A stretch of 64,000 bases of DNA from Escherichia phage Bp7: sequence record NC_019500.1, one strand, 5' to 3'. The first letter of the stretch is position 1. Each line of letters opens with the position of its first letter. A program made the translations under genes and the position numbers. Under the pieces are notes generated by a model. It did not search any database. It was not told the DNA's origin and was given only the letters and a program-made list of their open reading frames with translations. Positions 3,265 through 60,591 of the stretch are shown in pieces.

Positions 3265-3630
3265 ATGAACTACATCAACTTCGAACGTAAATATGTTTCT
3301 AACGGTATCGCTGGTTCTTCTGAAGTTATTTGCCTGTGGAAACACAACAACGGCGCGGTGTGCGAAATCGAACAGTGCATGACTCCTAACTACGTTTATA
3401 TGCGCTTTGAAAATGGTATTACGGTTTCAATCACAATGGAAGGTTCTACTTTTAAAATCGCTTTAGATGATGATTTCCGTCAACGTGATTTAGGTACCCA
3501 TCCTTGCTGGAACGGTTCTAATCGTAAGCTTCTGGTTAAAACCTGGATTCGTCACATCCTGAGCAACCGAGCTAAACCTGAACACCTGGAAGCAATCTTT
3601 GATGTAGTTCTGAATGAATTCGATATCTAA
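3265..3630 (+). CDS. hypothetical early protein
   Basis: 121-aa ORF behind leader copy B; not a paralog of the 2859 ORF. Confidence 0.6.
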   Translation: MNYINFERKYVSNGIAGSSEVICLWKHNNGAVCEIEQCMTPNYVYMRFENGITVSITMEGSTFKIALDDDFRQRDLGTHPCWNGSNRKLLVKTWIRHILSNRAKPEHLEAIFDVVLNEFDI

Positions 3631-7508: not shown

Positions 7509-9593
7509 ATGACCGAACAATTAAATGAAGTGTTTGAGTCCGAAGGCACACTGCCTACAGTAAACTTGAACCCAAAACTTAAAGTACCCCAGATTTGGAA
7601 GATTGGTGACGCAGAATCCCAATTAGTGGCGCGTATGGTATCCTACGCTTCTGAAGGTGATGCTATTAAACAGGTTAAGATGGGTGATAAATATGCCCAC
7701 GTTATCCTTATGAGCCTTTCAGCTAAAGGTTCGCCTGCCGAACTTAAAGGTGGCCTAGGCCCTACTCCCGTAGATGCGATTAATACTATTTTTGATGTGG
7801 TTTATGACCAAGTTAAAAAGCTTCGTATGGATGCCGTGATGTTCCGTTTCCCTACTAAGAAAATGAAAGGTCAAGGCCCTATCGTTCAACGGATTATCCA
7901 ACGTTTGGTAGCACAGAAAACAGGTGGACGTTTTAAAGTAGTTCCGGCTATGTACCAATTTACCGGTAAACATACTTATATCCTAGTAGTTCGTAAACAG
8001 GCTGATATCGAAGATATCAAAGGTATGCCAGGAATTAATGCCGAATTATACACTAAGGTAGATTCTGATGTCGGTGAAGTTTATATTTCTAAAAAAGAAG
8101 GCGTGCAGGTTACTAAAGAAACTGCTATTGCCGGCAGTATTGCTAAAGTTGAAGAACGTCGCACTGATAAAATGGTTATAACCAAGACTAAGATTTCTCG
8201 TCGTGCCATTGCAGCAAGTCAATCGTTAGAATCTTATCGTAATGAAAGTGAACTGTTTAAGAAATATGAAGCAAATGCCGTAGATTTTAATAAACCTGCA
8301 ACAGCTCCATTAATCCCTGAGGCCCAGGAAATGGTTACTAATAACAATTCTCCCGCGGCTAAAAATAAGGTTGCTAATATAGTAGCTGAAGGTACTGCTG
8401 AAGAATTGCATTATGATTATAAAATGTTTCCTCTTCACGGTATAGGTGAAATCCAAGAGAAAATTAAAGATAAAATTCTTGCGGCCATCAAAAACGAACC
8501 TTTGACATCTGTTAAAGCTCTAGAAAAATATGCCTCTGCTATTAATACCGTTTTCGAAGAATACAAAGGTGAATGGCTGGCCCGGCATAACAAAACTCGT
8601 AAAGGCCAACCTGACGACCTCTGGAATGAATTGACCGATGCGAAGTGGAAAGCCGCCAAGACCAAGTTCATTAAAAAACGTGTATATAGTTTTGCCGGTG
8701 TAGGTGGCGGTATTATGGTCGATATTACTATTGCTCGTGAGGGCTCTAAATATACCCCATCACAAAAGCGCGGCATCAGAGAATATTGTGGCTCAGGATA
8801 TACAGACATAAATAATCTTCTTTTAGGACGCTATAACCCTCAGAACTATGAGGTTATGGGCGAAAAAGATATCGAATCTGCAGTTAATAATTTGGATTCT
8901 GCTTTTGAAAATGGCGACCGTATACCAGAAGGCATCACAGTTTATCGTGCACAGAGTATGACTGCTCCTATATACGAAGCACTAGTTAAAAATAAAGTGT
9001 TCTATTTCAGAAATTTTGTATCCACTTCATTGACTCCTATCATTTTTGGACGTTTTGGTGTTACACACGCCGGTATCGGTCTTTTAGAACCGGAAGTTCG
9101 CGATGAATTGACAGTCGATAAAAATGAAGAAGGAATAACTATTAATCCTAATGAAATAAGAGCATATAAAGAAAATCCTGATTATGTTAAAGTTCAAATA
9201 GGATGGGCTATTGATGGGGCTCATAAAGTTAATGTCGTATATCCAGGAAATCTCGGAATAGAAACTGAAGCCGAAGTTATTCTACCGCGTGGATTAATGG
9301 TCAAAGTTAATAAAATAACAGATGCTTCTAATAATGATGGAACAACATCTAGTAATACAAAACTCATCCAAGCTGAAGTTATGACAACAGATGAGCTTCA
9401 AGAATCTGTGGTATATGATGGTGACGTACTAATGGAAACCGGCGAGTTGGTCGTATATAAAGATGACTTCGATACTTCCGAAAGCCCTGTATCTTTTGAT
9501 TCATTTGTTAAATCTACACGGTTTGATGTATTGCCTCTTTTGGCTTCATGCATAGACCTCTATGACATCCCAGAAAAATTCATCCAAGGGTAA
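7509..9593 (+). CDS. Alt-like ADP-ribosyltransferase, divergent paralog 1
   Basis: 694 aa; ART R/STS/ExE elements (QKRGIREYCGSGY, FYFRNFVSTS, ETEAEVILPRGL); N-terminal LNE motif consistent with prohead protease processing. Confidence 0.85.
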   Translation: MTEQLNEVFESEGTLPTVNLNPKLKVPQIWKIGDAESQLVARMVSYASEGDAIKQVKMGDKYAHVILMSLSAKGSPAELKGGLGPTPVDAINTIFDVVYDQVKKLRMDAVMFRFPTKKMKGQGPIVQRIIQRLVAQKTGGRFKVVPAMYQFTGKHTYILVVRKQADIEDIKGMPGINAELYTKVDSDVGEVYISKKEGVQVTKETAIAGSIAKVEERRTDKMVITKTKISRRAIAASQSLESYRNESELFKKYEANAVDFNKPATAPLIPEAQEMVTNNNSPAAKNKVANIVAEGTAEELHYDYKMFPLHGIGEIQEKIKDKILAAIKNEPLTSVKALEKYASAINTVFEEYKGEWLARHNKTRKGQPDDLWNELTDAKWKAAKTKFIKKRVYSFAGVGGGIMVDITIAREGSKYTPSQKRGIREYCGSGYTDINNLLLGRYNPQNYEVMGEKDIESAVNNLDSAFENGDRIPEGITVYRAQSMTAPIYEALVKNKVFYFRNFVSTSLTPIIFGRFGVTHAGIGLLEPEVRDELTVDKNEEGITINPNEIRAYKENPDYVKVQIGWAIDGAHKVNVVYPGNLGIETEAEVILPRGLMVKVNKITDASNNDGTTSSNTKLIQAEVMTTDELQESVVYDGDVLMETGELVVYKDDFDTSESPVSFDSFVKSTRFDVLPLLASCIDLYDIPEKFIQG

Positions 9594-11648
9594 ATGATGG
9601 AAAATTTAAACGAAGTTTTTGATAGCGATTCCGCTAAAAACTATCCAGTAATAAATCTTAAACCAGGTTCCGGTATCCCACAGATTTTCTCTATTAAAGC
9701 ACCGGGTAATGATAACCTGGTTGCTCGTATGGTATCTTATGCGTCTCAAGGAGACGCTATTAAAATGGTTAAGCCGGGCGACAAATATGTCCACGTTATT
9801 CTAATGAGTTTGTCAAGCAAGGGTGCTCCGGCTGAACTCAAAGGTGGTCTTGGTTCTGACCCACTCGGTACGCTGAATACCATTTTTGATACTGTATACG
9901 AACAAGTAAACAAACTTAAAATGGATGCGGTTTTATTCCGTTTCCCTACCAAGAAAATGAAAGGTAAGGGCCCTACTGTTCAGCGTGTATTAGCTCGTTT
10001 GGCTATGGCTCGTACTGGTGGTAAGTTTAAAGTTGTTGATGCCATGTACCAATTCACTGGAAAACATACCTATGTTCTTTTAGTACGTCGTGGCACTAAT
10101 ATTGAAGATATCAAGGGTATGCCTGAAATTGATGCCGAACTTTATACTAAGGTTGAGTCCAAAGTTGGCGAAGTTTATGTTTCTAAGGAAACCGGCCAGT
10201 CCGTAAGTAAGGCCGAAGCTGTCTCGGCAAGTATAGCTAAGGTTGAAGAGAAACGTACTGATAAGGCCGTCATTACCAAGACTAAGATTTCTCGTCGTGC
10301 TATTGCTATGTCGCAATCCTTAGAATCGTCACGATTTGAAACTCCTATGTTTAAGAAATTTGATTCTAATGCTGCTGAATTGAATAAACCGGCTACGGCT
10401 CCTTTAATGTCAGAAGCAAATGAAATAAAGGTTATTTCTAATTCTTTCTTGGCTTTAGAAAATACCATTAGTGCTAATACTGGTGGTATGTCGTTTAAAG
10501 ACAACCTTCTTATTCCAGAAGATAAAATGGAAGAAATTAATACCGACATAAAAATGAGAGCTTTTGAGAAATTACATGGATTAAATGTGACTTCAGTAAA
10601 AGCCCTAGAAAATTATGCTTCAGTGGTTGATGACGTCATCGAAGAATATAAAGGTCCTTGGCTTCAAAAGCTAATGGCTCAACATTCACACCTAGGTTAT
10701 CACGAAGCAGTCGAGTTGGCTGAAAATTCTTGGAATGCTATAAAGACCAAAATTATTCAACGTGAGCTGCGTGTTTACGCTCTTACCGCCGGTTGGCAAT
10801 TGCATTCTATTATAGAAAATAAAGACGCGTCTCGTTATACTCCTGCCCAGAAACGTGGTATTCGTGAATATGTTGGCTCCGGTTACGAAGATATGAATAA
10901 TGTTCTTTTAGGTCTCCATGACCCGAATGTAAGAAGCAGTATTCTGACTAATGAAGACATAGAAAAAGCTATCAATAACTTAGATTCTGCTTTTGAAAAT
11001 GGCGAACGTCTACCACCAGGTATTACTCTTTATCGTTCCCAACGAATGATTCCTGATATTTACTTGGCTATGATTAGCAATAAAGTATTCTATTTCAGAA
11101 ACTTTGTTTCAACTGCGATATATCCGAATATTTTTGGTACATGGATGACTGATTCTGGTGTTGGTCTTTTGCCTGACGAAAAACGTCGTGATGTTGCATT
11201 AGACAAATCGGATGAAGGTTTAGTATATTCGAATAAAGATACTTTAGTAGGTATTGGTTGGGCCTTTACCGGTACAGATAAGGTAAATGTCGTTTTACCT
11301 GGTGGAGACTTGGCTCCTTCTAACGAAATGGAAGTAATTCTTCCTAGGGGTTTGATGGTCAAAATCAATAAAATTACAGATGCTTCATACAATAACGGAA
11401 CTACTCGTTCTAACAATAAGTTCGTTCAAGCCGAAGTAATGACTGCAGACGAACTTAATGAAGCCGTGGTGTACGATGGTGATGCTCTGATGGAAACAGG
11501 CGAACTAGTTGTCTATAAAGAGGGTAATGAGCTTTCTTTTGATTCTTTTGTTTCTAATGAGAAGAAAAAGAAATCAGACAGAGGTCTTGGCTTGTTAGCT
11601 TCTTGTATAGATATCGACGCTCTCCAGTATAAATTTGTACAAGGGTAG
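9594..11648 (+). CDS. alt: Alt ADP-ribosyltransferase (packaged, modifies host RNA polymerase), paralog 2
   Basis: 684 aa; QKRGIREYVGSGY, FYFRNFVSTA, NEMEVILPRGL, C-terminal LLASCIDI...KFVQG shared with paralog 1. Confidence 0.88.
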   Translation: MMENLNEVFDSDSAKNYPVINLKPGSGIPQIFSIKAPGNDNLVARMVSYASQGDAIKMVKPGDKYVHVILMSLSSKGAPAELKGGLGSDPLGTLNTIFDTVYEQVNKLKMDAVLFRFPTKKMKGKGPTVQRVLARLAMARTGGKFKVVDAMYQFTGKHTYVLLVRRGTNIEDIKGMPEIDAELYTKVESKVGEVYVSKETGQSVSKAEAVSASIAKVEEKRTDKAVITKTKISRRAIAMSQSLESSRFETPMFKKFDSNAAELNKPATAPLMSEANEIKVISNSFLALENTISANTGGMSFKDNLLIPEDKMEEINTDIKMRAFEKLHGLNVTSVKALENYASVVDDVIEEYKGPWLQKLMAQHSHLGYHEAVELAENSWNAIKTKIIQRELRVYALTAGWQLHSIIENKDASRYTPAQKRGIREYVGSGYEDMNNVLLGLHDPNVRSSILTNEDIEKAINNLDSAFENGERLPPGITLYRSQRMIPDIYLAMISNKVFYFRNFVSTAIYPNIFGTWMTDSGVGLLPDEKRRDVALDKSDEGLVYSNKDTLVGIGWAFTGTDKVNVVLPGGDLAPSNEMEVILPRGLMVKINKITDASYNNGTTRSNNKFVQAEVMTADELNEAVVYDGDALMETGELVVYKEGNELSFDSFVSNEKKKKSDRGLGLLASCIDIDALQYKFVQG

Positions 11649-14080: not shown

Positions 14081-15817
14081 CTAATTAACTTTAGTAGCTT
14101 GACGCATACCAGGGGCCGGAGTAGAGGACTGTGGAGGTAAATTATAGCTTGTCTTACTCGTTTTCTTGATATTCGTTTGCTGATTTATTTGAGTTGGAGC
14201 TTGCTGACTATATTTAGCATTTTCCTTTGCTCTCATTTGCTCATCAACCTTTTTAACCTGGGTATTTTCAGGAGATTCCGCTACAGAAGCAGGTTTAGGC
14301 TTTTCAGCTTCATTAAATTTCTCTAAAGATTTATTCATCTTATCAAGTAATTGCTGGATATTAAGGTCCTTCGGTGCTCCGCCTTTAGCCATAATAGGGT
14401 CGGCCAATTGTTTCTCGATATCAGCTTTAAATGCTTTGGCATTTTCGATATCTTTAGAATCAGGCTTCATTATATTATCGGCAGTTTGAGTCAAACGAAT
14501 AATATCAGCCTGGGCTTTATCACGTTTCTTGAAATACTCTAAACGTTCTTCTTCAGGGAGGTCACGGAAGCTTGTGTCAATTCCACCTGCGCGTAATTGG
14601 TCAGCTTGTTCTTTAGTAAGATTACCGTATTTCTCTGCCTGGTTTATAAGCTCAGGTTTATCCTTATACTTCTTATTCATTTTCTCGGCTGTTTCTAAAG
14701 CCTCAGCAGAACGTCTATCATGGTACTTGGCTACTTTAGTTTGGTCTTCGACATCCAAAGTGGCTCCGGTATTTTGTTGATACGACATTAAAGCAGAAGC
14801 CTCTACGTTTTCAGCCAACTCACCCATACCAGGTATTTTGCTTAAAATAGCAGAAATCAACTTAGAAATACCGAGCATTAAAAGCTGGGCCATATTTTTA
14901 GTAAGATTAACCATACCACGAATAATGGCTTCAGCCAGACCTAACCAGTTCCCTTCACTAAACATAGCTTCGGCATTCTTGGCCCATGTCATTAATCCTT
15001 CAAGTAACGGGCCCCACTCTTTAAACTTATCATTAAATTCTTTCCACCCTGACTCAAATTGGTCCATGAAATATTGGAAGTACACACGAATGGCATCTAT
15101 ACCAAATATTAAAAGGACTAAACCTGCGGCGAGTTTAGCAGCTTCAGCGGCAGCGGTAATGGTATACTTAAAAAGCATGCCTGAAATTCTATCAGCGACG
15201 CCTATAGAAGCTTTAAATCCCTTTTCAGTTATTTTAGTAAGGGCTTCAATTTTATCAGAAAGAGAAGTCTTATCACCTTCTTTACCTTCATCTGAATTTT
15301 TAGGAGGCTCGGGCATAAATTCAGCGTCAGGTTTATTATCTTCAGGCGGAAGAATATCTTCAACAACAGCAGGAACTTTAGGAGTTTCGGCCTTAGGTTC
15401 TTCTGGAATAGAGTCTTCAATAACCTTTAATGAACTCCCTTCCGGTGGAATAGAAATACCAGAAAATTTAGCCTCTAACATATTAGAAAGCTTATTAATC
15501 TTTTCGTTTAGTGCATCCGAAAGAGCTTTAGATTGTTGAGTTTGTTCTGATATAGCTTCAGCCGTTAATTCTGTCCCAGCAACAACATCTTGGACGCTTT
15601 TATCTACTCGGTCTACAGAACTAATAATCTGATTGGACTTTGTCTCAACCACTTCAGAGAGCAATTCAGACGCCGCCTGGGAATCGGATAAAACATCTGA
15701 TATATTTCCTAATTCGTCGTTCTGAGTTTGGGCTAGCGCCTCAGCACGACGCTGAGGAGCCATTTCTTCAATCAGTTTATTGCGACGAAAACTATTCTGA
15801 TTAGATTCGTTCTTCAT
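14081..15817 (-). CDS. 29: baseplate hub / tail length tape-measure protein
   Basis: 578 aa; size and position as T4 gp29. Confidence 0.85.
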   Translation of the reverse strand: MKNESNQNSFRRNKLIEEMAPQRRAEALAQTQNDELGNISDVLSDSQAASELLSEVVETKSNQIISSVDRVDKSVQDVVAGTELTAEAISEQTQQSKALSDALNEKINKLSNMLEAKFSGISIPPEGSSLKVIEDSIPEEPKAETPKVPAVVEDILPPEDNKPDAEFMPEPPKNSDEGKEGDKTSLSDKIEALTKITEKGFKASIGVADRISGMLFKYTITAAAEAAKLAAGLVLLIFGIDAIRVYFQYFMDQFESGWKEFNDKFKEWGPLLEGLMTWAKNAEAMFSEGNWLGLAEAIIRGMVNLTKNMAQLLMLGISKLISAILSKIPGMGELAENVEASALMSYQQNTGATLDVEDQTKVAKYHDRRSAEALETAEKMNKKYKDKPELINQAEKYGNLTKEQADQLRAGGIDTSFRDLPEEERLEYFKKRDKAQADIIRLTQTADNIMKPDSKDIENAKAFKADIEKQLADPIMAKGGAPKDLNIQQLLDKMNKSLEKFNEAEKPKPASVAESPENTQVKKVDEQMRAKENAKYSQQAPTQINQQTNIKKTSKTSYNLPPQSSTPAPGMRQATKVN

Positions 15818-42983: not shown

Positions 42984-43014
42984 GGTTTATTCCTCTAATA
43001 ACCGTATTTATAGC

Positions 43015-50565: not shown

Positions 50566-53500
50566 TAATTTTTACCTGAGTTGGAACTTTAGGGTCTCTA
50601 GGATTTCCAATATCGTCTTTAAGACGCTTATCAACCAGTGCACGCCAATTGGCAAAGGTCGCAGCACTTTGGTCAAACAATGGACTATGCTTTTTAATAC
50701 GTTCGTGTGGTAATTGACCTTGGAATACAGAGAAATCATTTTCCGCATCATAATCTGCAGGGATATCAAACGGTTCTCCTGCTTTAGGTCCAACGTTATA
50801 AACCGGAAGTCCTGTTCTAGGGTCTCGTTCTATATTACCATCAAAACCTATTACAGCAACTCTATCATACCATTCAGATGGCAAACCTGAGTCCCATTTG
50901 TAGTTCTTAAGGATATTAATAATAGTTTCTGTATGTTTTAGCGTTAAACCTACGTTAACGAACATAGAAAGCAAAGTTATACCTACAAAGCCGAAACCTA
51001 CTGGATGAACAAATCTCAAAACATCGTTGCGATAACGAGAAGTAGGGAGATTAGACTTAATGGTCATCACATAATAAGAACGGTTACGGTTGATATAGTC
51101 GATATTGTTACTCAAAAGCTCTTTACCACGTACGCCCTGAACAATCATACCCTTGAACGAAGTACGTTCAGATTTAATTTCCTGTCCGACTATAAAACGA
51201 CCTAAAAGATTATGAATGGTTAAACGCCATTGCAGTTTACCATCTTTGTAATTTCGTTCTATATAAGTAACATTACTACGACCTGTAGGAGTATAAATCG
51301 TTTGGCCTACGATATCTTCACTGATATTATCAGATTCTACGATGATATCATATTCGATAGAGTTCTTGGACTCGATATCAATTTCTACATCTTCATTGTA
51401 AAGCAATTTAAACAGGAATTTATATGAAGCTTCGGTACCTTTTGTAGACCAAAAATCGGTTTGGCGCGCCTGGAAAAAACGAACTACTTCGTCGCGTTTT
51501 TCTTTCGACAAATAGATATTACGCTTATAGATTTCCGACCACAAATATTCCCATGAATCTTCTTCACGTGGGTATTGGTTACGAATAAGATTCAACAAAT
51601 TATTATAGTGTGTACCTGAGCCATCACTAATAAATTGGAGATAGTATTCACAGAATTTTTCAAAGTTGCTATCTTGAAGCAAATAACTATCTGGAATCAT
51701 TTTAACCAGTAAAGGCTGGAGGTCCGGGTCTTGCTCACCAACTTCCTCTTTAGGTTTCCACGGGATTTCATGTTCTTGGTTTTGCAATTCAGCCGTAAAC
51801 ATAATTTCTTTAGGCTTCCAAATAACACGGACTTCATCGCGTACACGATAGTCGAATTCAAAATATCCAACCAATTCACCTGTAGATTTGTGAATCATCA
51901 TTCCAGAAGAATATTTCTTAAAGCCGTTGAACTCTATATTAGGAGATGTGACTTTACAAAAACCTTTATTCCAAATCTCATGAACAATACGTTCAGGTGA
52001 AGAACCACTGTTCAGGTCGATAATTTTCTGGTATAAAGCATCGTTATAAACAACCATCGCATGGTCACCAGTGGTAATCCATGAACGGGTTCCATCGCGT
52101 CGAGACCAACTAAAGAATGGTTCGGCATAATAAGCCATACGCCCAGGTTTAAATTCTTTGAAATCGGATTTAGAGTTAGACCTAAAACTCATCATCAAAT
52201 AATGTTTATCGTGAATCCATTGTTCATCTTTAACATATTTAACGGCGGAGGTGACAATTTCAGGGTATTCCAAAGGAAGCTCAGAATCAACCTCTACTTC
52301 ATATCTAAAGTTGCTTGAACTGAAAAATAATTCCTCTCCATCAGTAGACATGCTGGTATATCCATGCTCTATACGACGACGTTCTTCTTCAGTGTTTCCA
52401 AATACACGGGTCCATGTATCAGTTGAAGTGTCTAACCAATAAACACCTTTGGATTCAGAATCAACCACATTGGATTCGACCGTAGGGTCCATTTTTTCTT
52501 CTTTAACTTCACCTGTAATTAAAGCAAATGTATGGCCTTGGATAGAATCTAATTTATAACAAACTGCTTTAGGGTTCCCTGTGATAGTTGAATATCCGCT
52601 TTCAAATATCTTCTCTCCATAAGTCGGAGAACTAGGGTCGGTGTCTATAGGTGCCTCAGATGTTTTTGCTTTATAAACTCTGTCTCTACCTGCAACATAA
52701 ATGAAATCATCAGAAGCGCATATAGCTTCAGCAATAGTGGAAATAGGCAAAGGAAGTTTTGCATATGACCCAAATATCTCGATTTCAAATGGAAGGTCGA
52801 TATCACTACCTATTTTAGCAAATGTTATATCTTGGGAGCTAAAACGGACATCATCAGCAGACCAACGAATATCACTTGATTTACGTCCGTAAAATATTTG
52901 GTCATAACCTAGAACATACGTAGTAGTTTCAGTTTGGTAATGTGCCGTACGTGAAACAGGGTTACCTACTCGGTCATTAAACAAACGGATATAATGCCAG
53001 TTCTGCCCTTTATCATTAGAAACCTTAGCAGTACTTTGGAACCTTTCTAAAAGGTAAAGTACACCACCAAGTTCCATTAAAATAGAACGTTTAGGGTCTT
53101 TACAAACCGCTTGGATGCTTCCTTGGATTTCATGGAATCGGTCTGCTTTTAAAACATAATTTGATATAGATGACAAATGCGAATACGCTGGCGTAAAGTT
53201 AAAATCTTCCGTCATTAAGGAAGCCATAATGGCATCGGTATTAAAGTTCACATAATTCTGATTATTTTTTGTGAATTTTTCTTCAATAAATTTATTAGAC
53301 AAAGTGAATTCACGCATATGCTCAAATGTATATGCGTTGGTAGAGAAAGTTTCAAATTCTTCAGTGTAAACCCATTCAGACTGCTCAAACCCCTGGGCGG
53401 CCACCGCAACTCGCATTTTATAAAATGAATTAGGAGAAATGAATGCCTCTTCAAACCATTCGTTATTAGGGGTGTAACCTAAATTTCTCCAAAATAATCT

Positions 53501-53653
53501 ATCGTCGGGAATTTCTACACCCGCATCCTTCGTTTGGGCCAGTTCTACGAAATAATAGAAGTTGGCGCCTACGTCATCCCAAAGAATGCTCACATGGTTA
53601 GCCGAGAGTTTATCAATTCTCAGACTAGTAACATAAGGCGCTTGTACAGACAT
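50558..53653 (-). CDS. 7: baseplate wedge initiator
   Basis: 1031 aa vs T4 gp7 1032 aa. Confidence 0.93.
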   Translation of the reverse strand: MSVQAPYVTSLRIDKLSANHVSILWDDVGANFYYFVELAQTKDAGVEIPDDRLFWRNLGYTPNNEWFEEAFISPNSFYKMRVAVAAQGFEQSEWVYTEEFETFSTNAYTFEHMREFTLSNKFIEEKFTKNNQNYVNFNTDAIMASLMTEDFNFTPAYSHLSSISNYVLKADRFHEIQGSIQAVCKDPKRSILMELGGVLYLLERFQSTAKVSNDKGQNWHYIRLFNDRVGNPVSRTAHYQTETTTYVLGYDQIFYGRKSSDIRWSADDVRFSSQDITFAKIGSDIDLPFEIEIFGSYAKLPLPISTIAEAICASDDFIYVAGRDRVYKAKTSEAPIDTDPSSPTYGEKIFESGYSTITGNPKAVCYKLDSIQGHTFALITGEVKEEKMDPTVESNVVDSESKGVYWLDTSTDTWTRVFGNTEEERRRIEHGYTSMSTDGEELFFSSSNFRYEVEVDSELPLEYPEIVTSAVKYVKDEQWIHDKHYLMMSFRSNSKSDFKEFKPGRMAYYAEPFFSWSRRDGTRSWITTGDHAMVVYNDALYQKIIDLNSGSSPERIVHEIWNKGFCKVTSPNIEFNGFKKYSSGMMIHKSTGELVGYFEFDYRVRDEVRVIWKPKEIMFTAELQNQEHEIPWKPKEEVGEQDPDLQPLLVKMIPDSYLLQDSNFEKFCEYYLQFISDGSGTHYNNLLNLIRNQYPREEDSWEYLWSEIYKRNIYLSKEKRDEVVRFFQARQTDFWSTKGTEASYKFLFKLLYNEDVEIDIESKNSIEYDIIVESDNISEDIVGQTIYTPTGRSNVTYIERNYKDGKLQWRLTIHNLLGRFIVGQEIKSERTSFKGMIVQGVRGKELLSNNIDYINRNRSYYVMTIKSNLPTSRYRNDVLRFVHPVGFGFVGITLLSMFVNVGLTLKHTETIINILKNYKWDSGLPSEWYDRVAVIGFDGNIERDPRTGLPVYNVGPKAGEPFDIPADYDAENDFSVFQGQLPHERIKKHSPLFDQSAATFANWRALVDKRLKDDIGNPRDPKVPTQVKIND

Positions 53654-53680
53654 TAAATCTCCTTAAACCTCCGAAGAGGT

Positions 53681-55639
53681 TTATATTGTAATTGGTTCCA
53701 ACTCTATAGTTGTGTACTGAGGACGAAGGTCATCTTCAAATACGATTAAAGAACCGTCTTTGGTAAAGATGTTGTCTTGGTCTGGCCCTGCATAAAGTTC
53801 AATAGACTGGACTTCAAAACGGTCGGAAGTAAGGCCTATTGCGGCGATATCCCAGAAAATAAAGTCCGAGTAATAATCAATTTCGCCAATAACATAGTAG
53901 ACCGATTGGTCTGCAGGCGCTGCCATTTTATCGAAGTCATCTCCGGTGTAAGGTTGGATGTATTGGTTTTCAATTACATCGCCAGGTCGGAAAGGACCTA
54001 TAACCATTTTACCATCGCCTCGTTCGTCTTTATCTGTGGCAACAATACGTACGTTGTAAGATTTAACAACATCAGATACGTTTGTTGGGACGAACTCAAA
54101 TTCACTAGAAGTTACAGAACGGTTGGTGTATTGATTATAGTATTTAATACCCGCTTCAGGTGTTTTGAAGAAGTTTAATACCTCGCGAACCATTGTTACC
54201 GTAGCCGAAGAGCCAAGGATACTGTGGTCTGCATTATCAATATAAGTCAGCATTTTAGACTTGGCAAATCCGTGGTTGAATATTTCAACTTCGTTAATAT
54301 AATAACGGTCTATTTGGGAAAGGATTTGAGCCGTTAACCATTGTTCGGATTCCTGTAATTTGTTCAGTGCATATGAAACCTTAATTTTATGCTTCAAGAA
54401 CAAGTAGTCAGGAGAAATAACCGAAGGGGTAATAGGTGCCAAGTTAAATTCTGAAAGATAATTTTGGATATCTTCGCGTTGAACCGCAGTCAAATACAAT
54501 CCTGATTTAGGTTTAATGGTAACAAAGGCATAACCTGGTTTATTTGGGTCTGTAAAGGTTTGTACTGCTTGTACAATAGAACCAAATCGCTCCGAAACGA
54601 ATGTATCATAATCTGTACCGGTTACAGCACGCATCTGGGCTTCACGTTTAACTACAGCAAGTTCACGAATACGTTCAATATCTTCAGGGTCACCACCACC
54701 GTCAGCACCTACATAATCCGGGTTTTCATCGTAGTTTTCTGTAATTTTTTCAACCGTAATATATGCCAAAGAATCCGCATAACTAAAGTCCACTGCCCCG
54801 TTAGCAACTTCACCATCTGTACGAAGGTATTCTATAACAATGGTAGCATCTTTAACAGGTTTTAAACCACCAATATAATTAGCTTCTAATACCCCACCTG
54901 CAACTGATTTTTCAGCAACACCTTCACCAAAGAAGAATTCAGTATTACCATCTACGGTTTCACGCATATAGTAAATTGTTGATGTACTACCAGCATGAAC
55001 CATGGATTTATTAGTCCAGTTAGTCCATTCTGCGCCATCGACATAAAGTTTAACTTCCTGTCTATCAATATCCGGGTCACGAATAAGAATAGGAGTTTTA
55101 GGGTCATACTTAAGTTCAGTACGGATAATACGACCTTGTGCTAAAGATACGATAGGAAGATATTGGTTATTAACATCACGTACGGCAATAACGTTTTCCG
55201 TGGTAACAAAAGCATACGGGTCTGCTGAAGTATCACGGGCATAGGCCAAGAATTTAGTACCACGTGGGATACGAATATTCTTTTCATTCAGGGCTTGGGT
55301 ACAGGTCAACATGATACTTGTTTTGGCTGCTGATTTAGAACTTGGCAAATAGCCGTTATCCTGTGCAGCCTGGACGACGGAGGAACGCAAGTTAGCAGTA
55401 CCGATGAAAGATTCATATACCGCGGTATTAGCAAACTGCTGCATATACAGGGTGTTGTAAGCTAACATGTCAATCAGGATATTCATTCGCGAACCAACGA
55501 AATCGTAATCCTTAAATTCGTCCTGGCTAGAAAGCCAATCGATAATATTCTTTTTAATCTCTTCAAACGTAGCTCCCACAAATACTTTTGGGATAGCGTT
55601 AACGGTTCTTGTTAATTGGTAATTCGTAGGAGTAGCCAT
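53681..55639 (-). CDS. 6: baseplate wedge protein
   Basis: 652 aa; N-terminus as T4 gp6. Confidence 0.93.
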   Translation of the reverse strand: MATPTNYQLTRTVNAIPKVFVGATFEEIKKNIIDWLSSQDEFKDYDFVGSRMNILIDMLAYNTLYMQQFANTAVYESFIGTANLRSSVVQAAQDNGYLPSSKSAAKTSIMLTCTQALNEKNIRIPRGTKFLAYARDTSADPYAFVTTENVIAVRDVNNQYLPIVSLAQGRIIRTELKYDPKTPILIRDPDIDRQEVKLYVDGAEWTNWTNKSMVHAGSTSTIYYMRETVDGNTEFFFGEGVAEKSVAGGVLEANYIGGLKPVKDATIVIEYLRTDGEVANGAVDFSYADSLAYITVEKITENYDENPDYVGADGGGDPEDIERIRELAVVKREAQMRAVTGTDYDTFVSERFGSIVQAVQTFTDPNKPGYAFVTIKPKSGLYLTAVQREDIQNYLSEFNLAPITPSVISPDYLFLKHKIKVSYALNKLQESEQWLTAQILSQIDRYYINEVEIFNHGFAKSKMLTYIDNADHSILGSSATVTMVREVLNFFKTPEAGIKYYNQYTNRSVTSSEFEFVPTNVSDVVKSYNVRIVATDKDERGDGKMVIGPFRPGDVIENQYIQPYTGDDFDKMAAPADQSVYYVIGEIDYYSDFIFWDIAAIGLTSDRFEVQSIELYAGPDQDNIFTKDGSLIVFEDDLRPQYTTIELEPITI

Positions 55640-55640
55640 T

Positions 55641-57704
55641 TTAATTCCTAGTAGGAGATTCTAAACAAGGTATGCAAATGGAAAGGGATGGAAATGCAAT
55701 CGTTAAACCGAATATTCCCAGCATCTTATTAATCCATTGTACCACCTTACTTAAGGATAATGTTGATATTTGGTTATACATTGATTTGCACAAGTCTTTC
55801 ATTGACCTGGAACCATCAGTAAATTCGTGATATAAAGATTTTGCTTTAGTTACTGAGTTCTCGTATATAACCATGATATCATCTACAGTAGCTCCGAGCA
55901 TACCGAGAAGTTCTTCCATTTGAGCCACAATAGGAAGTTTTTTGAATTCTTCTAAAGCCATATCTAATACATCAGAAACGGAGGTTTGACTTTCGGTAAT
56001 AGAGTTCTTAATCTGATTATATTTATTCTTTAAAAGTTCGAGTGCAGCTTCAGCTTGTGCTAATGCGGCTTCCTTCTGAGCAGTTAGCTCGTCTGTAACT
56101 TTTTCGTACATTCCTGAAAGATATTGTTTAAATTCAATAGCTTGTTTTTGTACTTCTTGCTTTTTGAGCTTAATCTCATTCCACAGATTGAGTGCCTGGG
56201 TTTTAAGAGCCTCAATCATTGCATAAGCTTCGTCTATTTTCTGGTCTACCTTTTCCATAACCATTTGATAAACATCTGATGCTGTGAATCCTGGAAAGTT
56301 ACCGCTCATTATCATGTCCAGTGGTTTAACTTGCTTCATCATTTCCTTGACCGCAGTAATAACGCTCCAAACTGGGTTCGGAACTATAGGAGGCATACTC
56401 CATATTTGAGCGAGGTCTACACACAGTTTTGATAATGCAACACCAGCCATAAGCAATTGAGACCAGGCCCAGTCATACAAGTCTGTAATTGCATCAATAA
56501 GGTCACGCGAATACATCTTGACGCGTTCAACCGAATAATCGTATGCAGACCCAATGGCAGAATAAATCGATTGGATGGTTTCTTCTAAATTAAAGTTTTT
56601 CCATGCTTCTTTTAATTTCTGTACACCATCACCTGAAGTGCAGAGGTCTTCTAGGTCAATAGTCATGCCCATAATAGTAATCGAGGGTAAAAAGCTTTTA
56701 AGTAAGTCCCACCCACCGCCAACAATATTCAAGACCTGTGATATGGCATCTTTAAATGCAAGAAAAGCCATTTGCTGAACATATTGACACATAGCAACAG
56801 CCGAGTTGCCTAGCTCTTCCATTGCGACCGATAGCTTACTATAACCAGAATCGAAGAATTTTTCCCAATCGGTTCCACCAGATGATGGCCATCCAGGGAG
56901 CATATCCCAATATAATTTGAATGAATTCCTAGATGTATTCCATGAAGCCATAATCGCATTGGTCAATCCGTTGTAAGGGAATTCCGCTGTAAAAGGAACA
57001 CAGCTTATTGCCCTGGCTCGCCCGGTTATTTCTGGCGGTAAAGACCCGATGGATACCGGTCCCGGAATCGGAGTTCCTGGGATACTCATATCAACATCTA
57101 GATTTAATACCAGTCCAACATAAGTACAAGGTTTTGTCTCATAGTACTTCAAATAAGCCCTGCGGGAGTCACCAAGGCCGTTAAAGTTGACATACATATG
57201 ATAATCAGCCGTAACTGCAATCATCGTCCTGGGGTCCATTCTGGGGCCTTGTGATGTCCATACACCGCCACAGTTTTCGATGCGATACATATCATATTCA
57301 ATAGATGTTTTATACAATACAGATTTTGATAAATCAGCGCCGTACCAATCATTACCGGGCAAAAGAGTTGCACCAATCGATTCTACATAATTTTCTAAAT
57401 CCAATTGCGTAATAAAGAATATTCCGAGTTTAGCACACCAGATACCTTGACTTGTTCCATCTTCCGGTGGGGGAGGTGCAGGAAAAGTTTCGGACTTATT
57501 ACCAAATGGATTTTGTGTGTATAAATGTGTAGCTAGTGGAATAATCTCGGTATCCCATTCAACGCCATTCCCAGGTTGAATAAAAGCACCTGTTGGGTTA
57601 TATAATTCCCATTTAACCCGGCGATATTCACCGGGTCCTACTGCGTCATCACAGGGACTTGTTACAGTCCCTACCACTTCATCAACTTTATCGTAGTAAT
57701 TCAT
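55641..57704 (-). CDS. large uncharacterised protein (687 aa) between genes 5 and 6
   Basis: Continuous ORF, ATG one nt after gp5 TAA and stop one nt before gp6 ATG; Pro-rich N-terminal region, helical/coiled-coil middle; no recognised family. Confidence 0.7.
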   Translation of the reverse strand: MNYYDKVDEVVGTVTSPCDDAVGPGEYRRVKWELYNPTGAFIQPGNGVEWDTEIIPLATHLYTQNPFGNKSETFPAPPPPEDGTSQGIWCAKLGIFFITQLDLENYVESIGATLLPGNDWYGADLSKSVLYKTSIEYDMYRIENCGGVWTSQGPRMDPRTMIAVTADYHMYVNFNGLGDSRRAYLKYYETKPCTYVGLVLNLDVDMSIPGTPIPGPVSIGSLPPEITGRARAISCVPFTAEFPYNGLTNAIMASWNTSRNSFKLYWDMLPGWPSSGGTDWEKFFDSGYSKLSVAMEELGNSAVAMCQYVQQMAFLAFKDAISQVLNIVGGGWDLLKSFLPSITIMGMTIDLEDLCTSGDGVQKLKEAWKNFNLEETIQSIYSAIGSAYDYSVERVKMYSRDLIDAITDLYDWAWSQLLMAGVALSKLCVDLAQIWSMPPIVPNPVWSVITAVKEMMKQVKPLDMIMSGNFPGFTASDVYQMVMEKVDQKIDEAYAMIEALKTQALNLWNEIKLKKQEVQKQAIEFKQYLSGMYEKVTDELTAQKEAALAQAEAALELLKNKYNQIKNSITESQTSVSDVLDMALEEFKKLPIVAQMEELLGMLGATVDDIMVIYENSVTKAKSLYHEFTDGSRSMKDLCKSMYNQISTLSLSKVVQWINKMLGIFGLTIAFPSLSICIPCLESPTRN

Positions 57705-57705
57705 A

Positions 57706-59493
57706 TTAACCGACCTGTACGTTGCCACCAGATACTTTAGCTAATGAACCGCCATCCATATGCACAGTATTTGATGCGTTTAAATTAATGTTCGTCGCTG
57801 CAAAATTTAAATCTTGTTCGACATTTACATCCATATTTTGAGCATTGATTGTGGCCTTTTGTTTAACGCTTATATCTGCATTCTGGTTGACATTAACTGT
57901 TGTATCTTTTTCAACCGTAATATATGCTTCTTGTTCAACAGTTATATCAGCAGTACCCATAATAACTATTTTAACATTTCCTTTAACAAGCAGAGTCCCA
58001 TCACCTTCTACGGTTTTAGTTTCATTACCACGAATATGGATGCTTTCAGACCCGTCAGTTTGACGACGCACGTTTGCCATATTATAATAGGTTTCATCGC
58101 CACCAACGTTGACTTTATTATTACCACCAACATAAGTATTTGAATCGCCTTGGGTCATATAATAACCATCGGCTACCGTCTTAGAAGTTTTACGTCCATC
58201 AGGAGCAACTTCTTCATAACTACCGGTAGGATGGATTAATCGATAACGCTCTTGCCCTGGGGTGTTATCAAATTCTTGGATATGCCCACCTTCAGTTTGC
58301 ATTGTCTGCACATAAGGATATTCGCCCTTATAACTTGATTCGGGTTCTTTAAAAAGAATCCTTGTATCTTCTGGGGTCCACGGGTCGGCCGGGTCTGAAT
58401 TTGCAGGTGCGGCAAAGGTTTGAATCATTCTATACGAACGCCCTTTAAATGACCTTTCTTTAGGAGCCATAATACCATATGATTCCATATTGCCTGTAAG
58501 GATAACCATTGACACCCTTGAAGCACGCCCTTTAGTTTGGTTAAACCATACAGAGTCGCGAGCATTGTCAAAGGCCGCTTTATAATCACCCGCTAACATA
58601 TCAGTAAGCATGCCCTGGAATTTAGCCAGTCCACCTACACCCATTTGGAAAGCCATATTTTCGAGGGCCATCTGTCTAGAACGGTTTTCTTTGTTGTATA
58701 CTTGCGTTAAAAGGGCATTAGTCTTTACAATATCCTTTTGGACTTTTTTAAGGTCTTCTTGAAATAATTTAGAAGCTTCCTCTATGGATATAGAGCCTGG
58801 ATTACCTTTAACTTCGCGCCCTATTTGTCTGGATAAAGCTTTATTAGCCCCAGTCATATCGCCTTTAGCAAATTCACCAATAAAGTGACCAATGCCGACA
58901 GTATATCCTCTAACGTCCCAATATACTTTAAGACTCAGGCCTTCATCACGTTGAATCATTTTCTCTATTGTAAAATTAGGGTCATTATCGGGTTTAATTT
59001 GGCTAAGGTCCTTTCCGTCTGGATTAAGGCCCAAATCTAGGTTAGAATCCTGGATTACGTTAGAAGTGGCATCATATCCAACTTCACCACCTCGGTTTAG
59101 TGCAGCGGCATCGTTACCTAAATAAAGTGGATATTGGCCTGTTGGGTCGCTAAAACCTTCATTAGGGTTTGCTTTTTGTTTTGAAGCAGAACCGTATGTA
59201 CCTAGGACAAGTCCGTTTAATTTCCACTTATCAAGAAAGTGGCCATAAACTTGTGTACCTGGGACCATACCTGTCATAGCGGTTTGTATACCTGAAACAG
59301 AGGCCGAAGATGTAGGCATTAATACCGACATCCATGGTAAATCTTCTGTACGAAGACCTTTTACAGGGCCTTGTACCTTTTCATAGGGATGCATACCCCA
59401 TACGCGCACGCGTACTCGGCCTTGTTTGAGCGGGTCCATTCGGTCTTCAACTACACCGACGAACCAACTTACATTATCAGACATGTTAATCAT
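57706..59493 (-). CDS. 5: baseplate central spike with tail lysozyme domain
   Basis: 595 aa; WFVGVVEDRMDPLKQGRVRVRVWG, lysozyme segment RDEGLSLKVYWD..GY.TVGIGH, C-terminal beta-helix repeats. Confidence 0.95.
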   Translation of the reverse strand: MINMSDNVSWFVGVVEDRMDPLKQGRVRVRVWGMHPYEKVQGPVKGLRTEDLPWMSVLMPTSSASVSGIQTAMTGMVPGTQVYGHFLDKWKLNGLVLGTYGSASKQKANPNEGFSDPTGQYPLYLGNDAAALNRGGEVGYDATSNVIQDSNLDLGLNPDGKDLSQIKPDNDPNFTIEKMIQRDEGLSLKVYWDVRGYTVGIGHFIGEFAKGDMTGANKALSRQIGREVKGNPGSISIEEASKLFQEDLKKVQKDIVKTNALLTQVYNKENRSRQMALENMAFQMGVGGLAKFQGMLTDMLAGDYKAAFDNARDSVWFNQTKGRASRVSMVILTGNMESYGIMAPKERSFKGRSYRMIQTFAAPANSDPADPWTPEDTRILFKEPESSYKGEYPYVQTMQTEGGHIQEFDNTPGQERYRLIHPTGSYEEVAPDGRKTSKTVADGYYMTQGDSNTYVGGNNKVNVGGDETYYNMANVRRQTDGSESIHIRGNETKTVEGDGTLLVKGNVKIVIMGTADITVEQEAYITVEKDTTVNVNQNADISVKQKATINAQNMDVNVEQDLNFAATNINLNASNTVHMDGGSLAKVSGGNVQVG

Positions 59494-60095
59494 TAGAGGG
59501 CTTTCTCCATTTCGCGAATAAGGGCAGAAATAAAGGACTCAATATCATTAGGGTCTACAATCTTTATTTCGCGCTTATATTCATTTTTACGAATAGCATC
59601 CTCGTAAATATCTACTGCAGCCAAAGGGCCCTCATATTGAGGATAACGTTTTTCTGTATCACCTTTATCATACCAAGTATATGGGTTTTCCGGAGTATTA
59701 ACAAGATTCCAGAATTTCTCACCCTTTTCATTAACATGATAAAGAACTTGATTGCCACCTGCAGTAGAATACCTTTGGATTGCCGCTTGATATGCGACTT
59801 CTTGGCCTGTAATCCAGCCGTAATAAGGGTCATATACGTTATTGCACATCAATAAAACCCAGTATAACTGAACGTTACCGTAAAGTTGATTGGCCAATTC
59901 TTCTGGACGAGGGGCCCCGTTGATATAATAAGTCTTTAGTGTATAGTTTTTAGCCACTTTATCAAAATATTCTTTATAATTTCTAAATATATCAGTCATC
60001 GGCACGCTTAGTACATCGGCATTTGTTAATGAGCCCGAATCCGGCTTGACTGTTTTTGATTCGTAATCGATAGGATCGAAAAATGAGAAGAGCAT
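59493..60095 (-). CDS. 53: baseplate wedge protein
   Basis: 200 aa; synteny. Confidence 0.88.
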   Translation of the reverse strand: MLFSFFDPIDYESKTVKPDSGSLTNADVLSVPMTDIFRNYKEYFDKVAKNYTLKTYYINGAPRPEELANQLYGNVQLYWVLLMCNNVYDPYYGWITGQEVAYQAAIQRYSTAGGNQVLYHVNEKGEKFWNLVNTPENPYTWYDKGDTEKRYPQYEGPLAAVDIYEDAIRKNEYKREIKIVDPNDIESFISALIREMEKAL

Positions 60096-60107
60096 AGGGC
60101 CTCCGAG

Positions 60108-60130
60108 TATAAATAATATTAATATTTATA
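60108..60130. promoter_or_regulatory. back-to-back late promoters (TATAAATA each strand) for 53 and 4
   Basis: gagTATAAATAatattaatatttataagg. Confidence 0.5.
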
Positions 60131-60141
60131 AGGAGGCAACT

Positions 60142-60591
60142 ATGGCTTACTCAGGGAAATTTAAACCTACAAACTTACAAAAATATAAAGGTGATTGGAA
60201 GAAAATCCAATATCGTTCCTCTTGGGAAGCATGGTTTATGCGTTGGCTTGACAACCATCCTAATGTAGTCCAGTGGAATTCAGAAGAGGTGGTTATCCCA
60301 TACTTTTGCAATGCCGAAGGAAAGAAAAGACGATATTTTATGGACTTCTGGGTTAAATTTGATACAGGCCAACAATTCTTTTTTGAAGTCAAACCTTTTA
60401 AAGAAACCCATGCTCCTGCGGTGCCTGTTAAAATGACTACGGCTGCTAAAAAGAGATATATCAACGAACACTATACTTGGTCTGTTAATACTGATAAGTG
60501 GAAAGCAGCTAAAGCTACAGCAGATAAAATGGGTATCACCTTTAGATTGATTACCGAACATTCACTGAAAAAATTAGGATGGAAAGGATGA
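60142..60591 (+). CDS. 4: head completion protein
   Basis: 149 aa; synteny and size. Confidence 0.88.

Follow-up and report, generated by a model that had tools for sequence, protein, structure and literature searches.

Escherichia phage Bp7 (NC_019500.1) carries, in the 64,000-nucleotide (nt) stretch of its genome analyzed here (the window), a 687-codon open reading frame (ORF) at positions 55641-57704 of the minus strand, between the genes for the spike protein gp5 and the baseplate wedge protein gp6. By sequence comparison, this ORF is a member of the recently proposed and uncharacterized RB43 orf205w family (phrog_5296), and it probably encodes a non-PAAR spike-tip protein of T4-like phages that docks on a dedicated gp5 end. 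The ORF has been exchanged at the same gp5 junction in two genera, it strictly co-occurs with one type of gp5 tip, and the terminus of that tip is invariant; a physical partnership between gp5 and the ORF product and a functional equivalence to gp5.4 of T4 are therefore indicated. A spike-tip role has already been proposed for orf205w in a preprint (Mattenberger et al., bioRxiv 2025, PMC12407873), to which the present work adds an analysis of the cassette and a predicted fold.

According to this preprint, RB43, RB16 and Lw1 have no gene 5.4, and the RB43 5.1-5.4 locus holds orf205w, which encodes a protein of about 690 residues that is alpha/beta at the N-terminus and helical thereafter (PMC12407873). 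In a cryo-electron microscopy (cryo-EM) map at 17.7 Å, the object on the spike tip is larger in RB43 than in T4, a low-confidence AlphaFold model of orf205w fits the RB43 tip density, and the RB43 gp5 helix is one strand longer (PMC12407873). The non-PAAR tip protein is described by the authors as "possibly encoded by orf205w" (PMC12407873).

Co-inheritance of the ORF and the gp5 tip

Homologues of the ORF were found by tblastn in 214 of 50,697 phage records, mostly from phages of Klebsiella, Escherichia, Enterobacter, Cronobacter, Citrobacter and Proteus. When the last 80 residues of gp5 were used as the tblastn query, 214 of 50,697 records were again identified, with an organism and host breakdown identical to that of the ORF; the search with gp5.4 of phage MX01 identified 1458 records. 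The C-terminal beta-helix tip of gp5 that is co-inherited with the ORF (residues ~516-595; 57709-57948, minus strand) ends in ...KVSGGNVQVG. All of the ORF-adjacent gp5 proteins examined (18/18) terminate in G[GA][NT]VxVG-COOH and have one strand more than gp5 of the T4 type, whose ending is GSRIDIG. This motif is kept in three metagenomic lineages (G+C content 31-37%) in which the ORF is ~30% identical and gp5 ends in TGGTVVVG, TGGTVSVG and TGGTVKVG. Among 12 related pairs, distances of the gp5 tip track those of ORF residues 1-205 (rho 0.89) and 291-470 (rho 0.91) more closely than do distances of the gp5 body, a correlation that shows co-inheritance and not the site of contact.

The ORF lies directly downstream of gene 5 in RB43, SP18, CJ20, SG1, phiP4-3, S13 and three metagenomic contigs, and the gp53-gp5-ORF-gp6 gene order of the window is shared with the orf205w loci of RB43, RB16 and Lw1. 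Adjacency to gene 5 is kept in 11 of 12 IMG/VR loci (in the twelfth, only a truncated ORF is present upstream, at the end of the contig). The gp5-ORF pair is intact even where gp6 does not follow, as in Cronobacter phage S13 and in a metagenomic locus (L027) in which gp25 lies between the ORF and gp6; the latter arrangement suggests lineages that are distant from T4-like phages of enterobacteria. Outside the pair, the locus tolerates insertions and rearrangements. RB16 has an extra 225-amino acid (aa) ORF between its orf205w homologue and gp6 (L014, 6091-6768), an IMG/VR contig has a 403-aa ORF between gp53 and gp5 (L010, 992-2203), and S13 has small opposite-strand genes downstream in place of gp6 (L024, 4562-7067). 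Gp5-like spikes also accompany the ORF in three metagenomic loci (L026, 219-1388; L027, 3-230; L028, 3-719), where the ORF is 28-40% identical in its N-terminal part. One metagenomic spike is 389 residues long, has Gp5_OB as its sole Pfam match and is too short to include a lysozyme domain.

Cassette exchange between phages

The ORF and the gp5 tip are contained in an exchanged cassette at 55596-57992. When the window is compared with the Gaprivervirus phages SP18 and CJ20, the flanks are just 70-85% identical, whereas identity rises to 99.3% in the tract 55596-57992, where 17 mismatches lie between 55651 and 57930. Because a tract of this identity sits between flanks of 70-85%, a unit consisting of the last ~75-95 gp5 residues and the ORF appears to have moved between genera recently. 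In the comparison with MX01, a sister Dhakavirus, the flanks are 93-100% identical and the core of the cassette (55650-57934) cannot be aligned, its place being taken in MX01 by a T4-type gp5 tip, gp5.1 and the PAAR protein gp5.4. The original reading that the ORF occupies the interval of the T4 5.1-5.4 genes is supported, as this sister phage has 5.1 and 5.4 at exactly that site. The right-hand break with respect to MX01 falls within gene 5: the two gp5 proteins are near-identical to ~residue 515 and unrelated beyond it.

The same exchange is found in Tequatrovirus, the genus of T4. Salmonella phage SG1 and a few relatives carry the ORF (9 records), versus about 500 records with 5.1 and PAAR (comparison records with flanks 95-99% identical). 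SG1 and NBG2 are 96-97% identical in the flanks, with breakpoints at ~gp5 codon 517 and 10 nt before gp6. In both the Dhakavirus and the Tequatrovirus swaps, the junction lies just after ...TKTVEGxGTxLVKGNV.

The lysozyme domain of gp5 contains what looks like a separate mosaic patch. Positions 58200-59100 are 68-91% identical to Escherichia phage WG01, versus 98-100% for 52000 to about 57900, and this stretch is equally diverged from MX01 and SP18.

Absence of a PAAR protein

In T4, the spike tip is formed by the PAAR protein gp5.4, which has reportedly been shown of late to matter on deep-rough lipopolysaccharide (LPS) hosts. The ORF has no match to the PAAR domain (PF05488) even at E-values up to 1, and a profile hidden Markov model (HMM) of MX01 gp5.4 together with its homologues in the database has no match in the reading frame of the ORF. 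The same HMM was run on the window and the rest of the WG01 genome, serving as a stand-in for the rest of Bp7 (the window together with three WG01 segments covers the whole WG01 genome), and its best E-value there was 2.5, versus 4.5e-57 on the MX01 control. In tblastn searches of the same sequences with the MX01 proteins, the best E-values were 5.8 (gp5.4) and 3.0 (gp5.1). The claim, made from the window's letters, that neither the ORF nor the window encodes a PAAR protein therefore stands, and the search of the WG01 segments likewise found no PAAR or gp5.4 homologue. The apical metal site of T4 gp5.4, made up of three His and one Cys, has no conserved counterpart in the ORF. Its three His residues (60, 169 and 626) are not invariant, invariant Cys is found at C18 and C193 only, and the window ORF has Ser in place of H16 of the consensus sequence HPC.

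Gene boundaries, family and annotation

The ORF begins with an ATG at 57704 and stops with a TAA at 55643-55641, both on the minus strand, to give 687 aa. Gene 5, its upstream neighbor (57706-59493, minus strand; phrog_430, E-value: 4e-222), encodes a protein 80% identical to MX01 gp5, and gene 6 (53681-55639, minus strand; phrog_219, E-value: 2e-205) lies downstream. With the last nucleotide of the gp5 stop codon at 57706 and the ATG of gp6 at 55639, one ORF fills the gp5-gp6 interval with single-nt spacers on both sides, as originally described. An alternative upstream GTG start at 57728 would give a 695-aa protein and an overlap with gp5. The ATG is likely the true start, because homologues begin with MNYY, MNYN or MIMDY and a 2064-nt version of the gene is annotated in the records of both WG01 and SP18.

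That the reading frame is open by chance can be dismissed: it has a full-length match to phrog_5296 (function unknown; positions 1-682 of 685, E-value: 0), and a homologue is encoded in each of the 214 phage records. A 7.2-kb region of the window is 96% identical to WG01 (Dhakavirus), and the ORF protein is 100% identical to WG01 ORF156, which is annotated there as a hypothetical protein. Identity to the RB43, RB16, Lw1 and KP15 homologues is 43% over 99% of the length. A Pfam search of the ORF gave nothing above a gathering score. Among 1.84 billion representative proteins, a profile search identified 13 with E-values below 1e-10, eight of them full length, and the family is therefore narrow, with a single architecture of about 670-760 aa.

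The gene had been called unrecognised, a description that holds for its annotation and not for its family. The GenBank note for SP18 already ties its copy to RB43ORF205w, and the label "hypothetical" is given in nearly all records among the matches listed. The phages H23 (MZ612130.1) and H33 (PQ657830.1) are among the few whose copies are labeled "baseplate hub structural protein" or "tail length tape measure". In phT4A (NC_055712.1, locus L021), a run of 100 Ns at 3400-3500 falls within the gene, which is annotated as a truncated 485-aa hypothetical protein. This copy was considered as a natural N-terminally truncated variant that could show the gp5-binding domain, and was rejected because the truncation reflects an assembly gap.

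Predicted structure

The full-length ORF protein was modeled with AlphaFold2 using 61 homologues (mean pLDDT 87, pTM 0.78). Three parts can be distinguished in the model, all encoded on the minus strand. The N-terminal alpha/beta domain (residues 1-205; 57090-57704) is compact and, when folded alone, has a pLDDT above 90 over most of its length. A search of the family profile against all PDB chains gave nothing significant, so no member of the family has been solved. The predicted N-terminal domain is apparently a new fold.

This domain is followed by a Pro-rich connector (residues 206-290; 56835-57089), which is confidently predicted only within the whole protein: its pLDDT is 62-90 in the full-length model, versus 34-66 in the model of the N-terminal part by itself. 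Both of the Pro-rich strings that had been pointed out in the translation could be located: PAPPPPEDG (residues 75-83) and GTPIPGPVSIGSLPP (residues 210-224), the latter within the connector, where P209 and P212 are invariant.

The remainder is a helical domain (residues 291-687; 55644-56834) of long antiparallel helices, predicted at residues 294-328, 398-435, 475-529, 538-575 and 631-664. A long helical or coiled-coil middle had been described; the helices are there, but they make up the C-terminal 57% of the protein (~294-664) and not its middle. The two most conserved blocks of the family (residues 421-480 and 631-660) are both in this domain. Close to the C-terminus is a conserved hydrophobic segment (residues 654-683; 55656-55745) that forms the strongest hydrophobic peak of the family, with a Kyte-Doolittle 19-residue mean of 1.87 in Bp7 and 1.77 averaged over the 61 homologues. 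In the model, this segment comprises the end of a helix followed by a strand (673-682).

Residues 472-667 have weak profile matches (E-values from 4e-6 to 4e-4) to tape-measure proteins of the PF10145 type, which have apolipoprotein-like helices, and PHROG tape-measure families match the ORF at an E-value of 4e-4. This similarity is compatible with composition alone.

Expression

The T4-type late promoter consensus TATAAATA is present upstream of gene 53 (60123-60130, minus strand) and is the only such site before the 53-5-ORF-6-7-8 run; the next on the minus strand is at 43012, with none between 60130 and 43012. In a scan of 53000-60400, predicted terminators were no more frequent than in shuffled sequence and none was convincing at the gene junctions. 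Counts of predicted sigma-70 promoters in the same interval were likewise no higher than in shuffled sequence. The simplest reading of this arrangement is that the ORF would be expressed late and co-transcribed with 53, 5 and 6. Late co-transcription had been anticipated from the spacing of the genes, and the promoter upstream of gene 53, the lack of junction terminators and the 1-nt spacers agree with it. In the window as a whole, TATAAATA occurs at 21 sites (7.2 expected), a number that no shuffle reached, and it is strongly biased to the minus strand (17/21 sites, between 18221 and 60130).

Proposed model and alternatives

The proposed model for the ORF protein during Bp7 infection is as follows. 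The protein would be made late, from the gene 53-5-ORF-6 transcript. It would dock on the gp5 beta-helix trimer at its blunt C-terminal end, in the longer variant ending in G[GA][NT]VxVG, and would replace gp5.4 as the apex with which the tail attacks the membrane. Contraction of the sheath would then drive the ORF protein and the spike through the outer membrane. With its hydrophobic C-terminus and tape-measure-like amphipathic helices, the helical domain would probably be more than a spike sharpener, interaction with the membrane being the most plausible further role. In this model, gp5 binding is something that we infer, as are the copy number and membrane activity of the protein.

Several points weigh against the identification of the ORF product as a spike-tip protein. 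Its placement in the virion, raised at the outset as a possibility, draws on the 17.7 Å RB43 map, with its "possibly encoded by orf205w", and on comparative evidence. Co-expression of orf205w with a gp5 beta-helix fragment failed, and no stable complex was obtained (PMC12407873). The search for a PAAR protein outside the window was made on WG01, which stands in for the remaining two-thirds of the genome and is 96% identical over 7.2 kb. The one virion proteome checked, that of the possibly related Morganella phage MP1, lists gp6 and gp7 and neither gp5 nor an orf205w-type protein, and is therefore uninformative. The papers on KP15/KP27 and phiEap-3 contain no mass spectrometry. The ValerieMcCarty phages were considered as a further source of virion proteomics and were rejected, being Jiaodavirus phages of the gp5.4 type.

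The main rival explanation is that the ORF encodes a chaperone dedicated to the assembly or folding of the variant gp5 tip, expressed late and not retained in the virion. By analogy, it would resemble the chaperones that are encoded just downstream of fiber and spike genes and co-vary with the C-terminus of their client. A chaperone would explain the co-inheritance with the C-terminal ~75 residues of gp5 and the position directly downstream of gene 5 equally well, which is a further point against a tip protein; the failed co-expression also fits. T4 gp5 is not known to require a chaperone. At 76 kDa, with two domains kept at ~30% identity across very distant lineages, the ORF protein would be an unusually large chaperone. 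A tip composed of gp5 only does not account for the extra mass on the RB43 spike (PMC12407873), and phages of the ORF type have no PAAR protein with which to fill this density. A chaperone is therefore considered improbable.

The two other alternatives are minor. In one, the protein is at the tip and its main role is that of the N-terminal domain, acting as an enzyme or as a receptor or envelope binder (of glycan or peptidoglycan), with the helices as a stalk. This domain is compact and confidently predicted, its invariant residues (R28, R29, W50, W120, Y121, D124, E136, E143 and N144) could form a site, and one distant metagenomic lineage pairs it with a gp5 that has no lysozyme domain; even so, such a role is given little chance. 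In the other, equally doubtful alternative, the protein is ejected and inserts into the membrane in the manner of a tape measure or translocon, building a DNA conduit from the hub or tube lumen or from a loose position in the baseplate, but for a luminal protein there would be no need to vary together with the final strand of the gp5 helix, all of the similarity scores are of the size expected for generic coiled coils and a canonical tape measure, gp29, is already encoded in the window (14081-15817, minus strand; phrog_1283, E-value: 3e-218). The ORF was also rejected as the tape measure itself, given the presence of gp29, the absence of a tape-measure Pfam domain and the weak similarity, confined to the helical region.

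The spike-tip assignment is thus retained as the probable one, and how the protein acts once at the tip is more tentative. Because the C-terminal hydrophobic segment is conserved and there are weak profile matches to tape-measure proteins, there is a hint of membrane activity, and action of the helical domain on the membrane is possible, if less than likely. Also speculative is the suggestion that the ORF represents a new tip module of contractile tails, in which an adaptor with a novel fold sits on the beta-helix end and carries a helical payload that enters the host membrane and starts or forms the DNA conduit. If true, this would be a phage counterpart of the "spike + adaptor + effector" cassettes of type VI secretion systems (T6SS), exchanged in one piece with the spike end that matches it.

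As a spike-tip protein family, orf205w would constitute a second solution to the tip, structurally unrelated to gp5.4 and seven times larger, and would bear on the step from outer-membrane puncture to DNA entry in contractile-tailed phages. The 214 carrier records include many therapeutic-candidate phages of Klebsiella, Enterobacter and Cronobacter. Near-isogenic natural pairs (WG01-like phages and MX01; SG1, JEP6 or G8 and ordinary Tequatrovirus phages) differ essentially by the cassette, and provide an experimental handle on the role of the tip protein and on the need for a match between the tip and the gp5 end. For engineering, the junction defined in gp5 indicates where spike tips can be exchanged.

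Elsewhere in the window, two paralogues of the Alt-like RNA polymerase ADP-ribosyltransferase (phrog_802) are encoded head to tail and at full length on the plus strand (7509-9593, E-value: 3e-263; 9594-11648, E-value: 5e-254).

Comparison with known systems

The helical domain resembles tape-measure proteins (PF10145; T4 gp29) in its long amphipathic helices and in the weak profile similarity of residues 472-667, but the ORF has no PF10145 domain and is not in the tape-measure position. An elongated helical bundle with a hydrophobic element is also found in the ClyA-family toxins (Hbl-B, MakA and YaxB) and in the type III secretion system translocator IpaB, which recurred in three different searches as weak matches.

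T6SS extended ("evolved") PAAR and VgrG effectors are similar in being tip adaptors delivered by contraction, with a large extra domain co-inherited with the spike end (a comparison that draws in part on the introduction of PMC12407873). Unlike these effectors, the ORF has no recognizable toxin or enzyme domain, and there is no sequence or fold relationship between the two.

With T4 gp5.4 and other PAAR proteins (PF05488; PDB 4KU0 is cited for the structure in PMC12407873), the ORF shares its genomic slot and, by our reading, the capping of the blunt end of a gp5 or VgrG beta-helix, and near-isogenic phages carry either one or the other. The ORF product differs in size (687 aa versus about 97 aa) and in its predicted alpha/beta and helical structure, which is not a small all-beta cone and has no structural match, and it goes with a different gp5 tip.

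The closest likeness is to RB43 orf205w, with which the ORF shares full-length homology, the position after gp5, the absence of gene 5.4, an alpha/beta N-terminus with an all-helical rest, and a gp5 tip of the long type (ending in TGGTVQVG in RB43). The published model of orf205w is of low confidence, whereas the mean pLDDT of the model obtained here is 87. The window gene also differs in its Tevenvirinae (Dhakavirus) background, in which it is the rarer allele and can be exchanged for 5.1 and 5.4.

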